The position numbers were made by a program, and so were the translations under genes. The notes beneath the pieces were generated by a model that was not told the DNA's origin, did no database searches, and saw nothing but the letters and a program-made list of their open reading frames with translations. 61,749 bases of DNA from Deltaproteobacteria bacterium (lineage in GTDB: Bacteria > SAR324 > NAC60-12), in contig JAYOTF010000002.1 in assembly GCA_038150265.1 (NCBI GenBank), forward strand, positions 81,403 to 143,151. Direction: 5' to 3'. Below, piece after piece: positions 1,188 through 23,864 of this stretch. The first letter of the stretch is position 1, and the number at the start of each line of letters is the position of its first letter.

Positions 1188-1227
1188 CCCCGTAAAAATC
1201 CCCATTTACCCGTAAAAATCCCCATTT
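1188..1227 (+). promoter_or_regulatory. Tandem direct repeat, putative upstream activator sequence for a sigma54 activator
   Basis: CCCGTAAAAATCCCCATTT twice at 20-bp period, about 120 bp upstream of a -24/-12 motif; matches the motif at 11663-11708. Confidence 0.65.
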
Positions 1228-1292
1228 CTTGCTGAGGCCTCCGATGTCCGGGGGCTTTTGCGCCCTCCGTGATCTTTTCAAAAGAATTAATG

Positions 1293-1305
1293 TTTCAAAG
1301 AGTTA
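1293..1305 (+). promoter_or_regulatory. Putative IHF site
   Basis: TTTCAAAGAGTTA, one mismatch to WATCARNNNNTTR, lying between the repeat and the sigma54 motif. Confidence 0.5.
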
Positions 1306-1346
1306 CACTTCTCTTGTTTTAAGAGAACGTGACCCTTGAGGGCACT

Positions 1347-1362
1347 CGGTATATCCGTTGCT
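1347..1362 (+). promoter_or_regulatory. Putative sigma54 (-24/-12) promoter
   Basis: CGGTATATCCGTTGCT = GG-N10-GC with TTGC, about 100 bp before the ATG at 1465. Confidence 0.6.
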
Positions 1363-1464
1363 GCTAAGAATGGCTTGTCCAGGTTTCTCCCCAAACTGGG
1401 GGTGAGCCTGGGGAAGGAGGAGCCCATCGGGGGCTCCGGTTTCTTAACATCAATGGAGGCGTAA

Positions 1465-2538
1465 ATGCTGAAGCTAGTGAAGCGGATGGCGCATACCGCT
1501 GTCGCCCTGCTGGGACTCTTCGGAACCGCAGAGGCGCAAGAGAACAAGGTTGAGATGTGTCTGAACGAGGCCATCCAGGTTTATGCGAACTGTATTGGAA
1601 ACTCGCAGGTGGGTTACAAGAACGACCCGAGTGCAAAGGCCGTGGAGATCATTGGGGACTGGGTTACCGCCGGGGCACCGAATGGTGAGTTTCAGTACAA
1701 GGGAGCAAACGGCGACCTGTATTCGGGAAACTTTGAGGAAGACATCCTGCCTCTCTTCACCAAAGCGGGGGTGTGGTACGAAGGATCTCGCTCTTGTGCC
1801 AGCTGCCACAACGGCAACACCGAAAACTCCTACCATGAGATGGATCTCAGCTCGTATGACGGCATCATGAAGGGCGGTGATGTCCTGTCCAGTCCCCCGG
1901 GAGTGGCAATTCTGGGACAATCCGGATTTGGCGCTACCGATTATGACTGGGGACACTCCAAGATGCGTGCTCGCCTGCGCAACAACCGCATGCCTCCAGG
2001 CTGGCCGGAAGACCTCTCGGAGGTCAACCGTGATGGCCCCTGTGTGGAAGTCACCGCTGCCGGTGCCACGATTCCGGGCTCAAAGGGAAAGGGGTCGCTG
2101 GAGTATGGCTGCGACCTCAATGCTGTGGGCTTGCTGGAAGCCTGGGTGAACGCGGGTGCCAAGAAGACGGAGAGCTTCAACTACGGGGGCCAGGCCGTCA
2201 ACTTTGAGCGAGACGTGAAGCAGCTCTTCACCGAAGGCAACATGTGGTACAACGGCTCGGCACCGTGTTCCAGCTGCCACTTTGGCAACACCGACCTCTC
2301 TTACCACGAGATGGACCTCGGCTCGTATGAGGGCATCATGAAGGGCGGAGACGTGGTGTCCAATCCACCGGGAGTCCCGCTGCTTGGGCACAGTGCAACC
2401 GGAGAGACCGACTACGATTGGGAGCATTCCAAGTTGCGGGAACGCCTGCGCAACAACCGGATGCCCATCGGCATCGCCTTCGACATTACGGAAGAGAACC
2501 GAGACGGGCCCATGGTTCTGCACGGCAAGCGACAGTGA
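1465..2538 (+). CDS. Periplasmic diheme c-type cytochrome with internal duplication
   Basis: GGAGG RBS; signal peptide ending AEA; two ~125-aa repeats with CASCH and CSSCH, each followed by YHEMDLxSYxGIMKGG and RNNRMP. Confidence 0.85.
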   Translation: MLKLVKRMAHTAVALLGLFGTAEAQENKVEMCLNEAIQVYANCIGNSQVGYKNDPSAKAVEIIGDWVTAGAPNGEFQYKGANGDLYSGNFEEDILPLFTKAGVWYEGSRSCASCHNGNTENSYHEMDLSSYDGIMKGGDVLSSPPGVAILGQSGFGATDYDWGHSKMRARLRNNRMPPGWPEDLSEVNRDGPCVEVTAAGATIPGSKGKGSLEYGCDLNAVGLLEAWVNAGAKKTESFNYGGQAVNFERDVKQLFTEGNMWYNGSAPCSSCHFGNTDLSYHEMDLGSYEGIMKGGDVVSNPPGVPLLGHSATGETDYDWEHSKLRERLRNNRMPIGIAFDITEENRDGPMVLHGKRQ

Positions 2539-3674
2539 GGTTCATCCTCCTGCTGAGCCTGGCCCTGGGGCTGGGTGGGTTCTGGAGCGGTCCGGAGGCT
2601 CAGGCCTCCGAGCCGTTACAGGTGCAGCCGAACTGGATGCTGCAAACGGAAGCCCCGTTCAACCTGTCGCCTCGTATTCAAGGAGACACGGTGCTGGCGG
2701 CTTCCGGAACCTCGCTCTGGGCCGTGGATTTGGCCTCCGGGGCCGTCCGTTGGCGCTTCCAGCCTCCGGAAGGTCTGTGGGAACGCTCCTTTACGTCTTC
2801 TGAAGCTCTGGTCTGGGTGGCCCTCCAGGACCGTTCTCTGGTGGCATTGGACCGCAAGAGTGGCCGCTTGGTGTGGAAGCAGGGCCTGGGGCTTCAGGCT
2901 CAGGTCGCACCGCTCCTCGCGGATGGGGTCCTGTATGTGGTGACGTCCCGTGTGGGCGAGCCGCTGCAGACCCTGAACGAGCCGACCTCCATTTTGGCTC
3001 TCCGGGCAACCGATGGCACCGTGCTCTGGAAGCAGGAGTCGTCGCATTACGCCATGCAGACACCTGTGCTCAGCGACGGTTGGCTGTACATTGGGGGAAG
3101 CTACTATGCTCCAGAGATTGAGGTCGACGAAGGAGGGCCCATGATGCTGGTCAGCCTGAACGCCACTTCCGGAGCCCGGCGCTGGGAGGTGCGACGCACC
3201 GAGGGCTTTGTCAAGGCCCTGCATGCAACGGCAGAACGCCTCGTGTTCATTGCGTATCAGGATTTCCTGGTGGGGCTCTCAGCGACCGATGGTTCGTTTC
3301 TCTGGAAGCGGGACACGGGCAACTGGGTCCCTTCGCTGACTGGAGTGGACCAGGTGGTGTACTGGGGCTCGGCCAATACGCGTGTGTTTGCGTATGAGGT
3401 CCAGTCGGGCACCCGGCTCTGGGAGTACGACATTCCGTGGGGCTCCTTCAATTACCTCCTGGGGGCACCGGCCGTGTTTGACCAACGCCTCTACGGCCTC
3501 TCCCAACGCGGGTACCTCTTTGTGCTTGAGGAAACGACCGGACGGGAGCAGTGGACGGCTGCTACTGGACTGACGTCTCGGGTGGGAGCCGCATTTGCCC
3601 CGGGACACGCCGTGATTGGAGATGAAGAGGGGCGGCTGGCAGGGTTTTCGATTCCGACAGCTGGATCAGAGTGA
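2535..3674 (+). CDS. Exported PQQ-like/BamB-type beta-propeller protein
   Basis: GTG start overlaps the upstream TGA; signal peptide; repeated AxDxxxGxxxW blades. Confidence 0.8.
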   Translation: MRFILLLSLALGLGGFWSGPEAQASEPLQVQPNWMLQTEAPFNLSPRIQGDTVLAASGTSLWAVDLASGAVRWRFQPPEGLWERSFTSSEALVWVALQDRSLVALDRKSGRLVWKQGLGLQAQVAPLLADGVLYVVTSRVGEPLQTLNEPTSILALRATDGTVLWKQESSHYAMQTPVLSDGWLYIGGSYYAPEIEVDEGGPMMLVSLNATSGARRWEVRRTEGFVKALHATAERLVFIAYQDFLVGLSATDGSFLWKRDTGNWVPSLTGVDQVVYWGSANTRVFAYEVQSGTRLWEYDIPWGSFNYLLGAPAVFDQRLYGLSQRGYLFVLEETTGREQWTAATGLTSRVGAAFAPGHAVIGDEEGRLAGFSIPTAGSE

Positions 3675-4262
3675 ACTGAACCCATTGACCTGGTCGGTCC
3701 GGAGGTGCAGGAGAATGGCCAGGTCATCAGCCGGCTCCGCAATGACGCCTCCGGCGACTGGGGGCACCACGATCTGTAGCAGGGAAAACGAGGTGTCCTG
3801 CTCACCCGTGATGACGGCATACCCCTGTGCCGGCTTGACCTGAAGCGCAAATGCCATCAGGTGGGGGACCCCGCCAATCTCCAACTCGCCTTCCAAACGA
3901 AACGCTCCTCCCTGCTGTACCGCCTTGACCTCCTCCCGAGGGACCCAGCGTGAGATAAAGACCAGGTCCGGATACTGGTCGGCCTTGAGGATCTCCTGAA
4001 CGCTGCTGTCGCGCATGGAACTGTCGGAATCGAACGATGCCACCGGCGCAGTGACGGTGAACCGGACCCGATTCCCATCGGCTTCCATGCGTGCCGAAAC
4101 ATCGCAGCTCTTGCCGATGACCTCCACGTCAGCCATCAAAAACATTTCCTTGTGGGTCCGGTACGCCAGACAGTGGTCGTCCGGAGCAAAGAGAGCCTCT
4201 TGCGCTCCAGCAGCAGACGTCTGGAGCAAGAGCCCTCCAAAAAGAAGCCAAAGCGCTTTCAT
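3666..4262 (-). CDS. YceI-like lipid/polyisoprenoid-binding protein
   Basis: Signal peptide; PVASFDSDSSMRD..V..IL.ADQYP.L.F and GELEIGGV motifs. Confidence 0.75.
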   Translation of the reverse strand: MKALWLLFGGLLLQTSAAGAQEALFAPDDHCLAYRTHKEMFLMADVEVIGKSCDVSARMEADGNRVRFTVTAPVASFDSDSSMRDSSVQEILKADQYPDLVFISRWVPREEVKAVQQGGAFRLEGELEIGGVPHLMAFALQVKPAQGYAVITGEQDTSFSLLQIVVPPVAGGVIAEPADDLAILLHLRTDQVNGFSSL

Positions 4263-4277
4263 GAATGTGTCCTCGGG

Positions 4278-4736
4278 TCAGGTCGTGATGGTAATGGTGC
4301 CTCCACTCTCGGAGACGGTGTAGGACGTGAGTGTGTAATTGGTCGATCCTCCACTTGGACCGCTGGTGCAGGAGCCTTGAAAGTTGAAAAGGGCTCCATG
4401 TCCCCCAGTGGCGATTTTGCACTCAATGGAATCTGAGCCACTCACAAAGGATAAGGTGCTGCCGGCGTGAGGGCAAGTCCCGCTAAAGGCACGGAGGGTT
4501 CCCGAGCTGTCTCGGCAGACCAGCATCTCTCCCGAGATTCCGGAGTAGTCGCTGCTGGTGAGGGCAAGGGTGCTGCTGTTAGCGGATAGCGTGGTGGTGT
4601 CAGCAGAGTCGAGGGTGATTTCTGTTCCGCTGCTGGGAGGGGTTCCACCATCGCTGGAGGAGCAGCCTCCAATGAGGCCACAGGCGGCACAGACGGTCAC
4701 GGCAGAGTGTTGGAGGAACTCACGTCGATTTTTCAT
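4278..4736 (-). CDS. Tat-exported Rieske [2Fe-2S] lipoprotein
   Basis: NRREFL Tat motif; lipobox IGGC; CPHAG box and C-x6-HGALF second box. Confidence 0.75.
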   Translation of the reverse strand: MKNRREFLQHSAVTVCAACGLIGGCSSSDGGTPPSSGTEITLDSADTTTLSANSSTLALTSSDYSGISGEMLVCRDSSGTLRAFSGTCPHAGSTLSFVSGSDSIECKIATGGHGALFNFQGSCTSGPSGGSTNYTLTSYTVSESGGTITITT

Positions 4737-4762
4737 AGATTCTCTCGAAAGGGGGCGGAGGG

Positions 4763-6376
4763 TCAGCTGTCCAGCCCGTGTTTTTCCAGCCGGTACCGCA
4801 TTTGGTCGCGGCTGAGGTTGAGGAGGCGGGCCGCCCCCGTAACGTTGTGGCGTGTTTGCTCCAGGGCCTGCTTGAGGAGATTTTGCTCCAGCAGGGTGAG
4901 GTCCACGCCATCCTCGGGAATCGGATGCTCCCAGCCTGGGGCCTGAGTCCAGTCGAAGTGGTGCCGTTGGAGGCGGAACTCAAACTCCTTTTCTGTCATG
5001 TGCAGCAACCGCGCAGCAGCATCCGGATCGCCGGAGGTCTGCTGGAGCGCCTGAGCCAGGATTCGCGGCTCGACTTCGAGGAGAGCCAAGCCATCTTCGG
5101 GCAACTGAAACAGAGGCCCCTTGCTGGAGCTGCTGGCAGCCAAGGGCATGGGAGCACTGGGCGTTTGCAGGTGCTGCAGGTGGGTGAAGCTCAGCTGATC
5201 CAGCCCATGGAAGAGAACACTGCGCTCCACCTCGTTCTTCAGCTCCCGGATGTTGCCAGGCCACGAATGCTGCTTGAGCATCCGCTCATTATCGACGGAC
5301 AGATGGAGCTGATTCGAATCATGAGGCATGGCGTACTTGCGGAGGGCCTCCCGGAGGAACTCCTGAGCCAGGGCGGGGATTTCTTCCGCCATCCCGCGCA
5401 GCGGAGGCAGGTGCAGGTGGATCAGGGCCAGACGGTGGTAGAGGTCTTCCCGGAAGGTGCCCTCCCGGACCGCCTGGGCCAGGTCGATGTTGGTTGCCGC
5501 AATGATCCGGACATCCAGCTCGGTTTCGCGTCCGCCTCCGATGCGTCGGATGCGTTTGTCTTCAATCACCTTGAGAAGCTTGGCCTGGAGGCCGAGGGGA
5601 ATGTGCCCGATTTCATCAAGGAAGATGGTGCCGCCGTTGGCCAGCTCGAAGAGGCCGGCTCGTTGGGAGACGGCTCCGGTGAAGGCGCCTTTTTCGTGTC
5701 CGAACAGCTCAGACTCCACCATCGTCTCCGGAATCGCCGTGCTGTTGATCTCAATGAAGGGCTCGGCGCTTCTGGGAGATTGCTGGTGGATGCGCCGAGC
5801 CAGCACGCCCTTGCCGGTTCCGGTCTCTCCGGTGATGAGGATGGAAGGCGCCTCGCCGCTTTGGTTCTCAATGCTGAGGAGGCGCTGCACCCGGGCTTCA
5901 ATCTCGGCATAGGCCGAAGACGTGAGGGCAAACGGTTCGGCGCCTTCACCAATCTGCCGGGCCTGCTGTCGGTGGTAGCGGACCTCCTGCTGCAGGCGTG
6001 TGTTCCGGAGCACTCGGGCGACTGACAGCTCCAGGGTGGCCAGGTCGAGGGGCTTGCTGAGGTAATCCGCTGCGCCTTCCCGGATGGCCTTGACGGCGTC
6101 CGGGATGCTGCTGTGGGCAGTAATGAGGATGATGGGCGTCTGAGGCTGGTACTCCAGCACCCAGTGGAGGAGGTCCAGGCCGCTCTTTCCCGGCAGTTTG
6201 ATATCCGAGACAATGATGTCGACCGATTCGTTGCGCAAGAAGCCAATGGCGGCTTCCACGCTCTCAAACCACTCGCACTGGTGGTGCTCAGACAGGTAGC
6301 GCTGGATGCTTTTTCCGAGCAAACGCTCGTCCTCCACCAAGAGGATCTTGGCGTGAGGCACAGAACTCAAGGGCAC
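4763..6376 (-). CDS. Sigma54-dependent response regulator (NtrC family) with two tandem C-terminal Fis-type HTH modules
   Basis: Receiver domain (VEDE, SDIKLP, SKP); GETGTGK; ESELFGHEKGAFTGA; FREDLYHRL; WPGNIREL; two QAL...AARLL modules. Confidence 0.95.
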   Translation of the reverse strand: MPLSSVPHAKILLVEDERLLGKSIQRYLSEHHQCEWFESVEAAIGFLRNESVDIIVSDIKLPGKSGLDLLHWVLEYQPQTPIILITAHSSIPDAVKAIREGAADYLSKPLDLATLELSVARVLRNTRLQQEVRYHRQQARQIGEGAEPFALTSSAYAEIEARVQRLLSIENQSGEAPSILITGETGTGKGVLARRIHQQSPRSAEPFIEINSTAIPETMVESELFGHEKGAFTGAVSQRAGLFELANGGTIFLDEIGHIPLGLQAKLLKVIEDKRIRRIGGGRETELDVRIIAATNIDLAQAVREGTFREDLYHRLALIHLHLPPLRGMAEEIPALAQEFLREALRKYAMPHDSNQLHLSVDNERMLKQHSWPGNIRELKNEVERSVLFHGLDQLSFTHLQHLQTPSAPMPLAASSSSKGPLFQLPEDGLALLEVEPRILAQALQQTSGDPDAAARLLHMTEKEFEFRLQRHHFDWTQAPGWEHPIPEDGVDLTLLEQNLLKQALEQTRHNVTGAARLLNLSRDQMRYRLEKHGLDS

Positions 6377-6382
6377 AGGCAG

Positions 6383-7540
6383 TTACTCCGGAATCTTGAT
6401 GTGGGCGTCTTCAAAGGAGCCATACTCGGCATATTGATGACACGCAGAACAGTTGACCTGGCTCATCACGGATTGGCGCTCAAATACTGCAGGGTCCACC
6501 TCGGAGTGCTTCTCTTTCCAGTAGGGCGTCTCTGTGATGCGGAAGGGGGTTTCGTTGGCAGGAATGGAGTCAAGGATGCGGAAGGAGGCTTCGCTCTTGT
6601 GCTGCTCCGCAGAGTGAGCAGTGGCATAGGCCAGGAGCTCTTGCGTCGTTTCTTCATCCAGGCTGGCGTCTTCCCCAAAGTGGTCCTCCAGCCCGGCGAA
6701 GAGGGCCTCCCAGGACCGCTTGGGGAGCAGGCTGGGGTGGAAGCCAACGTGGCAGGCCGCGCATTCTTCCTGATACAACTCATGTCCCGGGGGCGGGCTT
6801 TGGGTGAGGGCCTGCTGCGTCAGCTCGTCATGAAACTCCAGGGGCAGCAGCAACGCGGCTCCGAGTCCAGTGAAGCCGAGGGCGATGAGGAAGAGGTTCT
6901 GCACCCAGGCATGAGGGACGACGCTGCGGGCGGAGAGGTTGGCGCCGGGAACGTCACGCTTGTAGCCCGTGACCATGCCCCAGGGGAGATTCTGGCGCTG
7001 CGCCCAGCTTTCCAGACTGGCGGCCAGGACGTGTCCGGTGATGAGGACCAGCAGACCGTAGGCCAGGATATTGTGGAGGATGTGAGCATTGATGCCCCAC
7101 TCTCGACTGATCAGGCCTCCCAAGACGCCGATGCGCTCTTCCCCCGAAACGATCATGCCTCCGGTGACCGCCAGGGCCACCAGCACTGCCAGCAGCGTGA
7201 CCATCATCCAGCCGGCAGCCGGATTGTGCCCCAACTCCAGGATTGGGCCCTTTGCCCGTTCCTTGAGGTAGTGAAGGACCTCTTGGGGGGAGGCGACAAA
7301 CTCCCGGAAGCGGACAAAGCCGTTGCCGATCCAGCCCCAGACCATCCGGAAGCCCAGGAGCAGCACCAGGAGGCGTCCAAACCAGATGTGGACGTCAAGC
7401 ATCCACTCCCAGAAGGTGGTGATCCACGCGCCGGTGACGGTGATCACCAGCGCCCAGTGAAAGATCCGGGTGGGGAGGTCCCAGACCTTGACCCGCTCAA
7501 AAGGAGTGGGGTCAACGCGGGATGCGAACGTAGTCTTCAT
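6383..7540 (-). CDS. Cytochrome b (Ni-hydrogenase CytB type) fused to a diheme cytochrome c (DHC) domain
   Basis: VKVWDLPTRIFHW, HIWFG, GHNP; C-terminal ECAACH, LEDHFGEDASL, NCSACH; start placed at MKTTF. Confidence 0.9.
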   Translation of the reverse strand: MKTTFASRVDPTPFERVKVWDLPTRIFHWALVITVTGAWITTFWEWMLDVHIWFGRLLVLLLGFRMVWGWIGNGFVRFREFVASPQEVLHYLKERAKGPILELGHNPAAGWMMVTLLAVLVALAVTGGMIVSGEERIGVLGGLISREWGINAHILHNILAYGLLVLITGHVLAASLESWAQRQNLPWGMVTGYKRDVPGANLSARSVVPHAWVQNLFLIALGFTGLGAALLLPLEFHDELTQQALTQSPPPGHELYQEECAACHVGFHPSLLPKRSWEALFAGLEDHFGEDASLDEETTQELLAYATAHSAEQHKSEASFRILDSIPANETPFRITETPYWKEKHSEVDPAVFERQSVMSQVNCSACHQYAEYGSFEDAHIKIPE

Positions 7541-8138
7541 TGTAGTCCCCTTGCTCGGCAGTGGTGTGGCATGCCTGGCAGTTCGCAATGGTACGGATCG
7601 ATTCACGCTTCAGCATGCCGGAAGACACGTGTTCCCGGTGCTGGCGGGCAATCCCAGGCACATTGGAGATCCGTAGGTAAAGGCGGTTGCCCATGCCGTT
7701 CATCACCCGACGGGAGATGCGGCTCCGGGACTGGTCTGCCGAGTAGGTGACCAGGTGACTCAGGATCTGCTGATTGAGGTCCGGCTCAATGGTCGCATCC
7801 TCACCAAAGTGATCCTCCAGCCCACTCATGAGCGCTTTCCAGGATTCTGCCGGAAGCAGCTCGGCCTGATAGGCCATGTGGCACGCGCCACACTCTTCCT
7901 GAAAGACAACCGGCTGATTGGGAATGGAGTCCAGCACGGGCTGAGTGGGACCTCCGGAGCTCCACCAGCTGCGCTCATTTTCTTCGCCGTGTTCCCCACG
8001 CTCGCCGTGTTCCCCACGCTCGCCGTATTCGCCTCGTTCACCGTAGTCATCGTCATCATCCCCGGCCCAGGTGGCAACCGAGCAGCTCATCATCAGACTG
8101 GCAGAGATTCCCAAGACAAGTAGTTTCTTCATGGTCAT
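7512..8138 (-). CDS. Diheme cytochrome c (DHC family)
   Basis: Signal peptide; EECGACHMAY..LLP..SW, LEDHFGEDA, NCQACHT.AEQG. Confidence 0.9.
   Translation of the reverse strand: MTMKKLLVLGISASLMMSCSVATWAGDDDDDYGERGEYGERGEHGERGEHGEENERSWWSSGGPTQPVLDSIPNQPVVFQEECGACHMAYQAELLPAESWKALMSGLEDHFGEDATIEPDLNQQILSHLVTYSADQSRSRISRRVMNGMGNRLYLRISNVPGIARQHREHVSSGMLKRESIRTIANCQACHTTAEQGDYNEDYVRIPR
7984..8043 (-). repeat. 18-bp coding tandem repeat (GERGEH/GERGEY)
   Basis: CTCGCCGTGTTCCCCACG-type units encoding YGERGEYGERGEHGERGEHGE. Confidence 0.8.
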
Positions 8139-8155
8139 GTTTCTTCCTTACAGGT

Positions 8156-8596
8156 TTAGAGAGAAAGCATATAGGTCGTGAAGTGCCCCTTTTCTTCAGC
8201 GGTGCACTCGCGTTCCAGGACCCATTTGCAGTTGCGCTTGAACCACTTGTTAATGGTTCGTGCTTTGGTGAAACGCTCGGGGTTGACAGCAGGAGAGAGC
8301 GGATCAATGTCTTTCCCCGTCTGGATGTTTTGCCCAGCCTGAGCCGGGTCTTGCGTGTGACAGGAGGCGCAGCTGCGCTTCTCGCCTTCGGAGTGGAGGT
8401 GTTCCGTGTGGTAGATCTTCTTGCCTTCTGCGGCACTGAAGCCCTGGAAGCTCGGGTTTTCGGTTTTGGCAACCTTGGCCCAGCCATCCAGCAGCTTCTG
8501 GGCATCGGGGCTGGCAGGGGTGCCGGCGTGTGCCGAAAGGCTGAAGAGCAAGGCGGCACCCAGCAGGAGGGGTTTGAACAAAGAGGAGGCAGTCAT
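8156..8596 (-). CDS. SHP-like (Sphaeroides heme protein, DUF1924) monoheme cytochrome c
   Basis: SCASCHT, PLSPAVNPERFT, KWFKRNC.WVL.RECTA.EKG; adjacent to DHC and CytB. Confidence 0.9.
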   Translation of the reverse strand: MTASSLFKPLLLGAALLFSLSAHAGTPASPDAQKLLDGWAKVAKTENPSFQGFSAAEGKKIYHTEHLHSEGEKRSCASCHTQDPAQAGQNIQTGKDIDPLSPAVNPERFTKARTINKWFKRNCKWVLERECTAEEKGHFTTYMLSL

Positions 8597-8688
8597 AATT
8601 GGGTCAACCTAATCAGGAAGAGGAGGCCCCCTCCACCAGGGAGGAGGCACAGGAAAAAGCGCCGGCGTTTCCACCGGCTGAGTTTGAC

Positions 8689-8898
8689 TTAGTCGTCGCT
8701 GTCACGGTCGCAGAACATCCCGAGGGTACAGCTGCCGTCTCGGTCCCGGTCTCCTCGACCGGAGTCCCGATCGCTGTAACCCGGAGAGTCTGAACGAAAG
8801 AGGCGGGCCTGGCATCCGGAGAGCAGCAGGCTTCCTCCCGTCAACAAGATGAGGGCGAGGACGCTCCAGCGAAGGTGAAGGGTGGATAAGGGGCTCAT
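8689..8898 (-). CDS. Small acidic lipoprotein (69 aa)
   Basis: AAGGAG RBS; lipobox LSGC; ends C-x5-CDRDSDD; paralog of the next ORF. Confidence 0.75.
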   Translation of the reverse strand: MSPLSTLHLRWSVLALILLTGGSLLLSGCQARLFRSDSPGYSDRDSGRGDRDRDGSCTLGMFCDRDSDD

Positions 8899-8926
8899 GG
8901 CAACTCCTTTACTCAAGTCCGGAGTC

Positions 8927-9100
8927 TCAATCATCGCTATCAAAGTCACACAACAGGAAGCAGTTGGCATCTCCGTCATGGTCGTTGTCTCCCATGTGGG
9001 CGGAGTGGGTCGAGCAACCCGTGAGCAACAAGGTTCCTCCGGTCAGCGCCGTGACAACCAACAGGCTCCAGCGAAGACGGAGGGTGGATAGGTACTTCAT
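8927..9100 (-). CDS. Small acidic lipoprotein (57 aa)
   Basis: AGGAG RBS; lipobox LTGC; ends C-x3-CDFDSDD. Confidence 0.75.
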   Translation of the reverse strand: MKYLSTLRLRWSLLVVTALTGGTLLLTGCSTHSAHMGDNDHDGDANCFLLCDFDSDD

Positions 9101-9168
9101 TGAACAGCTCCTAAACTTGAGGTTCATTTGGGGTGAAGGCGGTCTTGAGAAAAAGATACCCAAGAACT

Positions 9169-9206
9169 ATGAAGCAATTATGAACACTTCATGGAAGGTT
9201 CATGAA
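9169..9206 (-). promoter_or_regulatory. Four TTCAT-like direct repeats at 11-bp period (OmpR/PhoB-type binding array)
   Basis: ATGAA/ATGGA on the + strand at 9169, 9180, 9191 and 9202, in the intergenic gap. Confidence 0.6.
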
Positions 9207-9212
9207 GTTGCC

Positions 9213-9416
9213 TCAATCGTCCCAGTCGTCGTCTCGTCCCTCGTCGTGGTAGCGGCGAGATCGGGAAGATCGGCTACGGTAGTCGTCTGAAGACCGATCG
9301 GTTTCATAGTAGCGGGACGAGCCAGAGTAACGGCCCTCGTAGCGTTCGGGACCGAAACATCCAGCCAGCATTAAAGAAAGTGGTAGTGCACCAATGAGGA
9401 AGAACGGTTTCATCAC
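9213..9416 (-). CDS. Small R/S/Y/D-rich lipoprotein (about 67 aa)
   Basis: Lipobox LAGC; ends GRDDDWDD; co-oriented within the operon. Confidence 0.65.
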   Translation of the reverse strand: MMKPFFLIGALPLSLMLAGCFGPERYEGRYSGSSRYYETDRSSDDYRSRSSRSRRYHDEGRDDDWDD

Positions 9417-9440
9417 AAATCTCGTGGAAGCTGTTGTCAG

Positions 9441-10019
9441 TTAGTCAAGAAAACCATGCCCCACCCAAAGCAGCAGGACCATGACAATGGAGAGAACGTG
9501 CTGAGAGTGAATGAGCCGGTTGACCTTGGCACCGGGGGCATCTGCCCGCTGCAGCTTCATGATGAGCCCACTGAGCGCCAGCAGCACCATCAGGCCCCAC
9601 CCGGCCCACACCAGGACGTTGCCCTCTCCCGCGGTGATGCCATGCAGCCACGCAATGCCGATCAGCACCGGGTTCCCCCAGTAATGCAGGCTCCGGGTGG
9701 CATTCTTCCACTTCAGGGGCTGCTTCACCCAGGACGGGGAGCTGGTCCGGACGGCTTTGGGCGCGCGTTTGAAGCCCATGCTGTAGTAGTAGAGGGCATT
9801 GAGGGCGACAAACCCGAGCAGGGCCACGTTTCCGAGGGCTTCCCCGGCTTCGGATCCTTCTCCGCCTTCGTAGCCCTCTCCTCCAAAGAACGACGAGGAA
9901 CGGCGGTCGTCATCCCCTTCCCCCCAGTCGTCGTCATCCGCCCAAAGCGGGACGGAGAGCAGCAGGAGCGAGGCGAGCAGAACCAGGAAGGCTTTCCAGC
10001 GAAGCGAGGCGTTAGTCAT
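9441..10019 (-). CDS. Membrane protein with His-bearing helices, cytochrome b-like
   Basis: Signal peptide, acidic N-terminus, four TM segments with SLHYW, WLHG, LIHSQH and VGHG. Confidence 0.65.
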   Translation of the reverse strand: MTNASLRWKAFLVLLASLLLLSVPLWADDDDWGEGDDDRRSSSFFGGEGYEGGEGSEAGEALGNVALLGFVALNALYYYSMGFKRAPKAVRTSSPSWVKQPLKWKNATRSLHYWGNPVLIGIAWLHGITAGEGNVLVWAGWGLMVLLALSGLIMKLQRADAPGAKVNRLIHSQHVLSIVMVLLLWVGHGFLD

Positions 10020-11406
10020 GAGCAGATTCCGAAGAGGTGTGGGGGAGGATCAGGCGGACGGTCGTGCCCTGGTGTGCCTGGCTTTCCAGTTCAATTCGAC
10101 CCTGATGGGCCTCCATGATCTTTTTGCAGAGGGCCAGGCCCAGGCCAATCCCGCGACTGCGGGTGGTGTAAAACTGTTCAAAGATGTGCTCCATGTGTTC
10201 CGGAGTGATGCCGTCTCCCTCGTCTGTGATCCGGATCCATTGATGGGTGGCATCAGCCTCCACAGCGCACGTGATGCGGCTGCCTTCCGGAGAGGCATCC
10301 AGCGCATTGGAAAGCACGATCAGGAGGGCTTCCTCGAGCAGAGATGGATCTGCCGAGAGAGGGGGAAGCTCCGGAGCCTCCGGAATCTGCAAGGCCACAT
10401 TCTGTTCCCGCAGGCGCCACTCCAGCGACCGTCCGGCTTCCACGACCATCGGGTAGAGCTGCAGAGGAGCAGGATTGGGGTGAAAGGGACGGACAAAGTT
10501 GAGCAGGTGGTTGACGCGCTCGGTGAGCCGGTCGATCTCCCGGACCAGTGAGAGGACGATGTCCTGGCTTTCCTCTTTGGTGATCGAGGGAATCGAGAGC
10601 AGCTGCAGCGCGGCACGCAGTCCGGCAATGGGGTTTTTCAGTCCATGCGCAACGGAGGCGCTCACTTCCCCCATGGCGGCCAGCCGTTCCTGCTTCAGGA
10701 GCTGCACCTGCGCGGCACGGAGCTCCTGGTTGGCCTGCGCAAGCTCCTGCGCGCTGTCGAGGAGGCTGTTGTGCTGACGACGCAGAATCCGGGAGGCGGG
10801 GAAGATGATCAGGAGCAACGTCAGGTAGAGGATGCTGCCGAAGCTGAGGCTGTAGACCCAGACCGACTGCCGAAGCGAATCCACCTGCCGCTTGAGCTGA
10901 ACGTTGTAGCGATGGACCTCGATGACGCCGATGATGTCGCTTCCCCGCGGAATTGGAATGTACAAAGCGGAAGCATAGCGAGCATCCGCATGCGGGAAGG
11001 CCTCTTCATCGACCATCTCGTGCTTCAGGGTCGCCTGCCCAGACATGGCCTGACGGAAGACCGCGGAGTCCTTGTACTCTCCGGTTTCTTCCTGAATGGA
11101 GGACCACCCGATCAGGCCATCCGGATGAATGATCTCAATGCCATGGCTGCCCGGAACCATTGTGACGGCGTGCAGGACGTCCTTCAGCAACTCGCTGTCG
11201 GTGTAGAGTGTCTCAAAGGGGCGATTCCCGAGGTACTCCACCACCTCCGACTGCACGGTGGTGGTCGTGATGAGGGTGTCTCGGCTCAGCAGCTCTTCTT
11301 CCAGCTGATTGCCCAGCAACCAGCTGAGCATCAACGTGAAGCCACACAGCACCAGCAGGCTGGCAACAGAAAAAACGGGAAGCAACGGAAACGGGCGTGC
11401 AGGCAT
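10012..11406 (-). CDS. Membrane-bound sensor histidine kinase
   Basis: Two TMs around a periplasmic domain; H-box SVAHGLKNPI; NALDA; DEGDGI; GIGLGL; start placed at MPARP (GAGGT RBS). Confidence 0.92.
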   Translation of the reverse strand: MPARPFPLLPVFSVASLLVLCGFTLMLSWLLGNQLEEELLSRDTLITTTTVQSEVVEYLGNRPFETLYTDSELLKDVLHAVTMVPGSHGIEIIHPDGLIGWSSIQEETGEYKDSAVFRQAMSGQATLKHEMVDEEAFPHADARYASALYIPIPRGSDIIGVIEVHRYNVQLKRQVDSLRQSVWVYSLSFGSILYLTLLLIIFPASRILRRQHNSLLDSAQELAQANQELRAAQVQLLKQERLAAMGEVSASVAHGLKNPIAGLRAALQLLSIPSITKEESQDIVLSLVREIDRLTERVNHLLNFVRPFHPNPAPLQLYPMVVEAGRSLEWRLREQNVALQIPEAPELPPLSADPSLLEEALLIVLSNALDASPEGSRITCAVEADATHQWIRITDEGDGITPEHMEHIFEQFYTTRSRGIGLGLALCKKIMEAHQGRIELESQAHQGTTVRLILPHTSSESAHD

Positions 11407-11578
11407 GAGGACCTCGGTCGGGTCTAAGGGGCCTGAAGGACGACCACCTTCCCCCGCAGGCGACTCGGCACCAGAGGCGTGGGCCTCTGTGGGTCGGGAA
11501 AGAGAAGAAGTGGTGGTGAGCATGGTCGCAGTCAGCAAGAGGGCCTTCAGCTTGAGAAGCCTGTTTTTTATGAAATGC

Positions 11579-11594
11579 AGCAAGTCGCAGACCA
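11579..11594 (-). promoter_or_regulatory. Putative sigma54 (-24/-12) promoter
   Basis: Minus strand TGGTCTGCGACTTGCT = TGG-N8-TTGC. Confidence 0.7.
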
Positions 11595-11622
11595 GCGGTT
11601 GTGGTTATTTTTTATTAAATAA

Positions 11623-11635
11623 AATCAGTATTTTG
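11623..11635 (+). promoter_or_regulatory. Putative IHF site
   Basis: AATCAGTATTTTG, exact match to WATCARNNNNTTR, preceded by an AT tract. Confidence 0.65.
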
Positions 11636-11662
11636 ATTTTATCTGGGAGGCGGTTGATCAAA

Positions 11663-11708
11663 AAGTGGGGATTAAAGTGGGGGTAAAGAAGCGGGGATTA
11701 AAGTGGGG
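11663..11708 (-). promoter_or_regulatory. Direct repeat, putative upstream activator sequence
   Basis: AAGYGGGGATTAAAGTGGGG twice (11663, 11689); minus strand CCCCACTTTAATCCCCRCTT resembles 1188-1227. Confidence 0.65.
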
Positions 11709-11718
11709 TGGGGAGACC

Positions 11719-11760
11719 AAAAAAAAATCCCCGGATACGGACGAGCCGCACCGGGGATTT
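11719..11760 (-). terminator. Rho-independent terminator of the phasin-like gene
   Basis: Minus strand AAATCCCCGG...CCGGGGATTT stem running into 9 T. Confidence 0.8.
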
Positions 11761-11787: not shown

Positions 11788-12093
11788 TTACAGAGCCGGA
11801 ACCATGGCCTCAGCGGAAGTCATCCACTGGTTGGTTTGCTGGCGCACGTCTTGAGCCACTTTGCGGACCTGAGCGTAGCCGTCGGTGAGGGCTTTCAGCT
11901 GAACAGGCTTGGCGTCTTTCAGGACGGCAACCATCGGGTTCTGATCCATCATCGGCAGCTTCTCCATCATGCCGAAGGTCTGCTCCAGCGCTTGCTTTTG
12001 CAGGGTCTCCAGCTCGCCCAGACCTTTTTCGTACTGGTCGCAGAAGTCGTTGTAAGCTTTTTTGGCAGGGGCCATCATCGTTTCTTTAGCCAT
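11788..12093 (-). CDS. Small alpha-helical protein, phasin-like
   Basis: AAGGAG RBS; Q/K/M/A-rich amphipathic helical composition; own terminator. Confidence 0.55.
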   Translation of the reverse strand: MAKETMMAPAKKAYNDFCDQYEKGLGELETLQKQALEQTFGMMEKLPMMDQNPMVAVLKDAKPVQLKALTDGYAQVRKVAQDVRQQTNQWMTSAEAMVPAL

Positions 12094-22877: not shown

Positions 22878-23864
22878 ATGACATTTTTTTCCTCGCCCAA
22901 GCTGCTGGCAGGGGCCGCATTGAGCCTGTTGGTGGGGCTCTCCGGCTGCTCGGATGAGCAACTCAACTCCCTGTTGCAACAAGCGTTGGACAACCAGACC
23001 GTTGCTGGGACCACTGATAATCAGAGCATTACCACCGCTGATGACAATGCTTCTTCCGGAGTCAACCTGACCTGTTCCGGGCGTCCGGATGACGGTCGGG
23101 CGACCGGCCGAACGGTTCTGCACGAAGGAGAAGACCGGGAGCGTGGTGAAGACCATGGCGATGACGACGGGTCGTCACACGAACAGGAAGGCCCCAGAGG
23201 TCCTCGCCCCGAGGTCAGCGATTCAAACGATGGCTATGGGCAGGACCCAAACAATGGCTCGGATGCTCAGGCGTCCAATGAGGGCTATGGGCAGGATCCG
23301 TACGATGGCTCGAATGAAACGGAACCGCCTCCGCCTCCACCGCAGACGGGTGACGCGTCCGACTCCGATTCCCATGATTCCGGAGCCGGGCCCCACGATC
23401 CGGCTCATGATCCGGGAAGCGAGGGAAGCCACCTGAACGACGGTTCCGGAGCCGGCTGCGGACCTGAAGCCCTGGCCAGTGTGACGGGAGCTTCGCGGAG
23501 CCACCACTTTGGAGAAGACTGCATGGCCTGTCACACGGCAGGAAGCGGAAGTGAGGCCGGTGAGCATGCGTTCACCATCGCGGGAAGCATCTACCGCAAC
23601 GGAAGCGCTCTGCTGGACAGCGAGGCGACGGTCAGCTTCTACACCGAATCCTACGGCCGAGGCACTCATGTGCTGACCCTGCCCGTTGATGCGGAAGGGA
23701 ACTTCTTCACGAATCAGTCGATTCCGGAACTCAGCCAGGGCCTCTACCCACAAGTGGAACACCAAGGATGGACCACGTCGATGGTCTCACAGCCAACCAC
23801 AACGGGCTCCTGTGCCAGCTGCCATGCCAGCACCACTGCCCAGGGCCCGATTTACGCCCAGTAA
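22878..23864 (+). CDS. Diheme c-type cytochrome lipoprotein with long acidic low-complexity linker
   Basis: Lipobox LSGC; D/G/S/P-rich linker; DCMACH and SCASCH flanking a beta-sandwich-like segment. Confidence 0.8.
   Translation: MTFFSSPKLLAGAALSLLVGLSGCSDEQLNSLLQQALDNQTVAGTTDNQSITTADDNASSGVNLTCSGRPDDGRATGRTVLHEGEDRERGEDHGDDDGSSHEQEGPRGPRPEVSDSNDGYGQDPNNGSDAQASNEGYGQDPYDGSNETEPPPPPPQTGDASDSDSHDSGAGPHDPAHDPGSEGSHLNDGSGAGCGPEALASVTGASRSHHFGEDCMACHTAGSGSEAGEHAFTIAGSIYRNGSALLDSEATVSFYTESYGRGTHVLTLPVDAEGNFFTNQSIPELSQGLYPQVEHQGWTTSMVSQPTTTGSCASCHASTTAQGPIYAQ
23223..23315 (+). repeat. 51-bp imperfect coding tandem repeat
   Basis: GGCTATGGGCAGGAYCC..A.GATGGCTCG-like unit twice, encoding SN(D/E)GYGQDPxxGS. 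Confidence 0.7.

Follow-up and report, generated by a model that had tools for sequence, protein, structure and literature searches.

The 61,749-nucleotide stretch of a SAR324 genome (Deltaproteobacteria bacterium, lineage NAC60-12) analyzed here (contig JAYOTF010000002.1, positions 81,403 to 143,151; hereafter the window, whose numbering we use) contains at 1188-11708 a heme-protein island with two convergent arms. One arm encodes a FoxE-like diheme cytochrome and a β-propeller, the other the Sphaeroides heme protein (SHP) module with a sensor kinase and a σ54 activator. The gene identities, the homology to FoxE, a duplicated helix-turn-helix (HTH) in the activator, and a conserved 12-bp array with a -24/-12 element are all observed. 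A real, autoregulated σ54 island is highly probable. Its own kinase and activator likely switch both arms on; with slightly less than even confidence, we further propose that they do so in response to periplasmic Fe(II) and that the products oxidize or buffer iron. An earlier note on this DNA, which described a self-contained σ54 island, overlooked the duplicated DNA-binding domain and the link to iron.

As that note had it, both ends of the island show the order enhancer, integration host factor (IHF)-like site, and -24/-12 element. The left enhancer (1188-1227, + strand) is formed by units 1188-1207 and 1208-1227, 20 bp apart, and the right enhancer (11663-11708, - strand) by units 11708-11689 and 11682-11663, 26 bp apart; each unit comprises two C-runs separated by 12 bp. 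The left arrangement is repeated in the relatives G001, G002, G005, and G012 and the right one in G001 and G002. On the left, an IHF-like site with one mismatch to the consensus (1293-1305, + strand) is identical in G002 and was not found in G001; on the right, two overlapping sites on both strands (11623-11638) have one mismatch each. The left -24/-12 element (1346-1362, + strand; GG 1348-1349, GC 1360-1361) predicts a start near 1373, and GG-ten bases-GC precedes the same FoxE-like gene in G001, G002, G005, G012, G049, and G051. Its right counterpart (11579-11595, - strand; GG 11593-11592, GC 11581-11580), with a predicted start near 11568, is conserved in G001 and G002. Taken alone, IHF-like and loose -24/-12 motifs are frequent in the host genome (~0.21 and ~0.25 per kb); these weak motifs gain weight from their order and conservation. 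Hairpins are present at about 1236-1267 (+ strand), between the left enhancer and the IHF-like site, and at 11725-11760, where one would insulate the right enhancer from the upstream gene.

The 20-bp enhancer consensus proposed earlier was searched for in the host genome (3,393,712 bases, 98% complete). There are two exact matches and four with at most one mismatch, all four at the island ends; at two mismatches there are 12, eight of them elsewhere. The repeats had been described as each present twice, but on either side one of the two copies departs from the consensus by one base. Comparison of the regions upstream of the cargo of full-length activator orthologs from eight relatives reveals that the 20-bp form is species-specific and not kept there. 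What persists is a run of four C, repeated in one direction at 12-bp intervals and separated by AT-rich spacers. Direct 12-bp spacing of C-runs occurs in 10 of 11 upstream regions (two from the island, nine from relatives; two regions of the nearest relative were excluded as too close), whereas 300 dinucleotide shuffles gave 2.1 such regions on average and never more than 5; this enrichment is overstated, as the pattern was picked after seeing the data and shuffling breaks homopolymer runs. Direct spacings of 11, 13, and 24 bp are likewise enriched in these regions, and inverted spacings all stay within the range of the shuffles. A -24/-12 element, defined by a loose pattern, is present in 12 of 13 upstream regions. 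The spacing is constant at 12 bp within a unit and varies between units (19-26 bp start to start). Scanned with a matrix derived from 11 units in the relatives, the host genome shows 139 single units scoring at least 9 bits but only two pairs, which are the two island ends.

The best evidence that the activator reads the array is that the array follows the activator family across different cargo and recurs at extra promoters, namely between kinase and membrane protein in G012, G049, and G051. At other loci of the family (L020, L023, L025, L203), the activator gene lies next to genes for secreted proteins carrying long tracts of Asp or Asp/His, for monoheme lipoproteins, or for lipoproteins with pentapeptide repeats. 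At loci L020-L022, an inverted G-run/C-run pair is also present. The enclosed activator thus likely reads a direct-repeat enhancer shared by the σ54 promoters, as the earlier note had suggested. At the level of sequence, both ends have the features of σ54 targets: -24/-12 promoters with an upstream enhancer, in a genome that encodes one rpoN, three IHF/HU genes, and eight σ54-type activators.

The activator (4763-6376, - strand) is of the NtrC type, with a receiver, an AAA+ σ54 interaction domain with GAFTGA, and Fis-type HTH. Instead of a single C-terminal HTH, its tail contains two units (about residues 425-474 and 486-535) with a period of 61 residues, the first with a degenerate recognition helix; Pfam scores only the second. 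Within the host, the duplicated tail is confined to this activator. The period is free of gaps in 11 activator sequences of 39-91% identity, implying a linker of fixed length, and the model of the tail is compact (predicted local distance difference test 91.7, predicted template-modeling score 0.82). Two-HTH activators are found in 11 of 88 genomes of the phylum, all in one family (10 of the 44 other family members, none of 43 genomes outside). Among the best 150 of 6371 representative matches, 27 have at least two HTH units; six two-unit proteins share the 61-residue period, and the other multi-HTH proteins have periods of 62-72 or more, so the duplication arose elsewhere too. Seven proteins of ~255-305 residues (P0137, P0140, P0145, P0154, P0168, P0182, P0196) lack an AAA+ domain and are built chiefly from Fis-type HTH units in tandem, with a period of 65-72. 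In the part of a survey of σ54 activators available to us, four architectures are distinguished, each with a single C-terminal HTH (PMC3162934), and the available part of a Desulfovibrio regulome study does not mention direct-repeat sites (PMC4641369).

Across the family, the second recognition helix is conserved. The first is acidic and has lost its leading Arg in the diheme-linked clade (support 98/99) and in three further proteins; in a deeper clade both helices are intact. A fold search aligned chains of TyrR, NtrC4, and Fis across both repeats (TyrR with 58 of 61 residues, root-mean-square deviation 2.3, model range 1-117), suggesting, indirectly, that the first N-terminal arm packs on the second HTH core as in a dimer. 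We slightly favor a model in which the two units form a single-chain pseudo-dimer whose second unit reads DNA, with chains placed head-to-tail every 12 bp; such chains would explain a direct rather than an inverted repeat. A less probable alternative, which concerns DNA recognition only and is compatible with any function of the island, is that one chain reads a whole unit, with the two HTHs head-to-tail on C-runs 12 bp apart. The spacing fixed at 12 bp within units and variable between them, the fixed linker, and the intact helices of the deeper clade agree with such a tandem reader. It fits poorly with the FoxE-linked clade, where the first helix is acidic and lacks Arg and yet both C-runs of the unit are equally conserved, and with the dimer-like packing suggested by the modeled ranges.

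The left arm begins with a periplasmic diheme cytochrome c of 357 residues (1465-2538, + strand). It has two internal repeats, each with CxxCH and the methionine of an invariant Arg-Met-Pro, and it matches FoxE in homology and in fold (PDB 5MAB). The earlier note had called this cytochrome novel and, with the propeller, an uncharacterized partner of SHP; instead, the two are FoxE- and FoxY-like. Both CxxCH motifs and the distal methionines are invariant in 57 sequences and align with the RMP motifs of FoxE, consistent with His/Met ligation. The start of the propeller gene (2535-3674, + strand; 379 residues; PQQ/BamB-type, Pfam PQQ_2) overlaps the stop of the cytochrome gene. It forms a discrete family, likened to FoxY by class and synteny, and adjoins the FoxE-like gene in 62 of 80 loci. 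The leader of this FoxE-like gene contains a C-run/G-run hairpin (about 1388-1401) that may be an RNA element; G001, G002, G049, and G051 have similar ones.

Apart from the novelty of the diheme protein, Pfam confirmed the gene content listed in the earlier note. On the - strand, the SHP homolog (8156-8596; PF09086; compared with PDB 1e8e and 1dw0) retains both cysteines of the disulfide and has Asn in the sixth-ligand position. It is accompanied by DHC, a soluble diheme cytochrome c with an acidic N-terminal tract (7512-8138; PF09626), and by CytB-mDHC, a cytochrome b561 fused to a diheme cytochrome c (6383-7540; PF01292 and PF09626), as in the SHP operon described by Meyer et al. (2010), though the regulator differs. 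A membrane protein of 192 residues with an acidic N-terminus and histidines (9441-10019, - strand) matches cytochrome b561 weakly (E 1e-4, below the cut-off) and accompanies SHP in G001, G002, G005, G012, and G049. Three small lipoproteins lie between it and SHP on the same strand: an Asp/Arg-rich lipoprotein 1 of 67 residues (9213-9416), with analogous peptides at the same position in G001, G002, G005, G012, and G051, the acidic lipoprotein 2 of 57 residues (8927-9100), and its paralog, the acidic lipoprotein 3 of 69 residues (8689-8898), with a homolog in G002. A hairpin before SHP (8661-8678, - strand) could split the long right operon. Also on the - strand, a YceI-like periplasmic protein (3666-4262; PF04264) is part of the locus in the three genomes of this genus and in no others, and a Tat-type Rieske [2Fe-2S] lipoprotein (4278-4736, - strand; PF00355), with its four ligands kept and an insertion in the second motif, is likewise restricted to the genus.

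The system is neither self-contained nor limited to two arms, as it continues to the left of 1188 and past the window edge with a third operon. There, a weaker 12-bp C-run array (C2 80014-80062) and a -24/-12 element at 80115, both clearer in G002, mark a third candidate σ54 promoter, with a start predicted at about C2 80140 (+ strand). Downstream come two genes for diheme lipoproteins (within C2 80014-81402; L107, L225), the latter of them interrupted by a gap in the assembly, and then those for a β-barrel protein and a monoheme lipoprotein. The predicted outer-membrane β-barrel protein (5-748, + strand; 247 residues), third gene of this operon, has no Pfam or NCBIfam match; its Atlas features are at 0.99 to outer-membrane β-barrel clusters, which we take as a lead. 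The last gene encodes a monoheme c lipoprotein of ~142 residues with lipobox and CxxCH (745-1176, + strand), which is adjacent in G001 and G002 and lies within the SHP operon of G005. We assign the left-flank genes to the SHP module because in G005 they form a single run with the membrane protein, SHP, DHC, and CytB-DHC.

The two arms share one locus in 6 of 7 family genomes with a full-length diheme cytochrome, as expected from the earlier proposal; all seven have the activator adjoining and SHP in the genome, whereas SHP occurs in only 1 of the 38 other family genomes. In the seventh, G005, where the modules are split, an in-frame stop and an N gap interrupt the activator gene and the kinase has Tyr at the phospho-His position, which appears to reflect decay or an assembly error. 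G005 also has foxEY-like genes, kinase, and activator in one operon (L019:8467-11724), and a membrane LuxR-type gene facing its SHP operon. Outside the family, foxEY-like genes, CytB, SHP, and DHC lie in a row in L152, and L175 combines foxEY-like genes, DHC, and a PepSY/regulator/kinase set. A very unlikely reading is that the two arms are functionally unrelated and gathered around a single regulator of envelope or cation stress. Such accretion would account for the variable cargo of the activator family (Asp-rich secreted, pentapeptide-repeat, and porin-like proteins), for a Rieske protein and YceI found in this genus only, and for the split in G005; it sits badly with the co-occurrence described above, although kin are not independent, and with the independent fusion in L152.

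The signal was approached through the kinase (10012-11406, - strand; start most likely ATG 11406, where homologs begin). A periplasmic ExxE is present in 8 of 9 aligned orthologs. The best NCBIfam matches, AtoS and ZraS, are below the cut-off, and Pfam recognizes no heme or PAS domain. The SK1 motifs quoted in the available part of PMC2909971 are absent from the kinase alignment. Secreted peptides rich in Asp, Glu, and His recur as cargo across the activator family, and the host encodes two heme-copper oxidase subunits I and has no match to RuBisCO. These features, the periplasmic ExxE, the acidic or His-rich peptides, and heme-copper oxidases without RuBisCO, point to a cation as the signal, most plausibly Fe(II). 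Clusters of the SHP-operon families are reported to be induced by Fe(II) in Sideroxydans (PMC8788666, PMC12442390) and in Ferrigenium, where the function was called unknown (10.64898/2026.01.22.701106).

In the mechanism that we propose, the kinase would phosphorylate the activator, which would bind the C-run arrays, loop over the IHF bend, and open the σ54 promoters at both island ends and probably the third to the left of the window, so that its own genes would be under positive feedback; we have high confidence in this regulatory scheme. Less securely, and just short of an even chance, the signal and substrate would both be Fe(II): the kinase would respond to periplasmic Fe(II), the FoxE-like His/Met hemes would take electrons from it for transfer either to a heme-copper oxidase or to DHC/SHP and O2, and the acidic lipopeptides would bind metal. 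Iron oxidation or buffering is accordingly a best guess at the function, tentatively held; detoxification or accessory energy is likelier than autotrophy, since no RuBisCO was found.

Under the same regulation, the signal might instead be O2, nitric oxide (NO), or general periplasmic redox stress, with the module acting as an NO scavenger or as an oxygenase fed by quinol, a reading near the earlier view. SHP binds O2 and NO, has NO dioxygenase activity, and is reduced in vitro from quinol through CytB and DHC, according to the available parts of PMC2909971 and 10.64898/2026.01.22.701106, and 8 of the 17 phylum genomes (among 88) that encode SHP have no FoxE-like match. We regard this as rather unlikely: it leaves unexplained the enhancer shared with the foxEY-like arm and the repeated joining of both modules (L152, L175), and the kinase has no recognized heme or PAS domain. 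A membrane-anchored LuxR-type regulator adjoins SHP operons or foxEY-like genes elsewhere (L218:9271-9840, L219:5229-5795, L223:8822-9484, L152:13935-14459, L163, L168, L176), LIC13292-like where scanned, below the cut-off; it is possibly an alternative sensor of the same signal.

Several observations weigh against the Fe(II) reading and its regulatory frame. The diheme protein has only 25-27% identity to FoxE and a TM score of 0.46; the Cys80-Cys258 disulfide of FoxE (PMC10654088) is not conserved, with Tyr aligned to a FoxE Cys and no invariant Cys beyond the heme cysteines in the 57 sequences; and the role of FoxE itself is only "putative". No FoxZ DMT transporter is present among the island genes (FoxZ is mostly absent outside Rhodobacter, PMC10654088), no PqqE scored above the cut-off in our search, and a crude CxxCH scan of the host detected no Cyc2/MtoA-like protein. 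No Arg precedes ExxE in the aligned kinases, and in BqsS the Arg of RExxE is required, as stated in the available part of PMC4358008. The C-run motif was chosen after the sequences were seen, deeper members of the activator family have unrelated cargo, the third array fails the paired-site matrix test in the host genome, and, contrary to our expectation of an array there, neither array nor -24/-12 element was found at the distant SHP operon of G005. The HTH geometry was taken from aligned ranges only. The seven diheme genomes represent three genera and are kin, not independent, and DHC occurs in only 6 of 80 FoxE-like loci, four of them from one SAR324-type group.

The low identity also leaves room for an improbable third possibility, that the FoxE-like/propeller pair oxidizes a different small periplasmic donor, whether another metal, an organic, or a sulfur compound, to supply a terminal oxidase with electrons, its likeness to FoxE being ancestry only. 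Members of the family are often met in Anaerolineae-type loci next to caa3 oxidase (COX1 in 11 of 80 loci), TauE adjoins in L154 and is nearby in G005, and an FAD oxidoreductase adjoins in seven loci. Conversely, no catalytic cofactor site was identified, the heme ligand motifs match those of FoxE, and FTR1 (in L154) and irc-like neighbors recur. LuxR/GAF two-component genes neighbor 12-14 of the 80 loci. In L133, L135, L137, L138, L141, L150, L156, L159, L172, L173, and L189, which encode Anaerolineae-type proteins, an operon for a caa3-type oxidase adjoins the FoxE-like gene, and the propeller gene frequently lies on the other strand. Among related cytochromes, G082 encodes a four-heme FoxE-like lipoprotein (L220:529-2304), and G043 (L222) and G036 (L224) have divergent FoxE-like lipoproteins adjoining other cytochromes and a kinase. 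In the host, a third paralog of the diheme lipoprotein, bearing a long insert rich in Asp, His, and Gly, is located at 22878-23864 (+ strand; L227:1281-2267), and a 648-residue hexaheme class I-type cytochrome (C4 37010-38956, L226) has homologs in five of five relatives searched, where its upstream G-run array is not conserved. Flanking the system, between purU and the island, a 101-residue gene (11788-12093, - strand) has no Pfam or NCBIfam match; it looks phasin-like.

Returning to Fe(II), the island is a testable candidate for an iron-sensing, iron-oxidizing unit. SHP/DHC/CytB and FoxE/FoxY have each been tied to Fe(II) separately and weakly; with a shared predicted enhancer and one kinase, a single reporter could name the signal for both. 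Should it be Fe(II), SAR324 would join the candidate iron-cycling bacteria, and it would become clear whether a foxE annotation in a marine genome stands for iron oxidation or for detoxification. In the full picture, which is speculative and rather unlikely, one SAR324 family would have an overlooked, porin-light regulon for Fe(II) oxidation in which a FoxE/FoxY-type oxidase is physically linked to SHP/DHC/cytochrome b, so that both orphan systems share a job, under the control of a new iron sensor and a pseudo-dimer activator polymerizing head-to-tail on 12-bp repeats. A σ54 activator with duplicated HTH on an asymmetric 12-bp repeat also poses a clean structural question on the choice of site geometry.

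The island joins known modules in a new way and has an unusual activator. It resembles foxEYZ of Rhodobacter ferrooxidans SW2 (PDB 5MAB/5MVO; PMC10654088, PMC3753534) in the diheme fold, the CxxCH and distal-Met motifs, and the adjacent PQQ-type eight-bladed propeller gene. It differs in its low sequence identity, a stronger internal repeat (59%), other cysteines, the lack of foxZ, a non-phototroph host, σ54 control, and the junction with SHP/DHC/CytB. It appears to work like foxEY plus irc, yet it is not assignable to foxEYZ, because FoxZ and the disulfide are absent and its Fe(II) oxidation is putative. With the SHP operon, as covered by the available part of PMC2909971, it shares SHP with Asn ligand and disulfide, soluble DHC, a CytB-mDHC chimera, and a linked kinase and regulator; here the kinase appears, by description, to be none of SK1-SK3, the regulator is a σ54 activator, and acidic lipoproteins, Rieske, YceI, lipoprotein cytochromes, a barrel, and foxEY-like genes are added. 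The Fe(II)-responsive ircABCD (Slit_1321-1324), in the excerpts available from PMC8788666 and PMC12442390, matches at the family level only, through diheme c, monoheme c, and cytochrome b families and a small uncharacterized protein, and no Cyc2/Mto was seen in the host of the island in the crude scan. The Fe(II) sensor BqsRS of Pseudomonas, in what is available of PMC4358008, likewise pairs a two-pass kinase with periplasmic ExxE and a regulator on a tandem repeat, but there Arg precedes ExxE, and the regulator of the island is of the σ54 type rather than the BqsR type. NtrC/AtoC-type activators and Nla28 of Myxococcus (available part of PMC9765219) share the receiver-AAA+-Fis HTH order, an enhancer 70-160 bp upstream, and an IHF site, and direct-repeat binding as proposed here is reported for Nla28, so that a direct-repeat enhancer is not in itself the novelty it had been taken for. 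What sets the island apart from these is two HTH units per chain and a strongly asymmetric half-site with a fixed 12-bp period, where the 8-mer consensus of Nla28 is palindromic and variably spaced.

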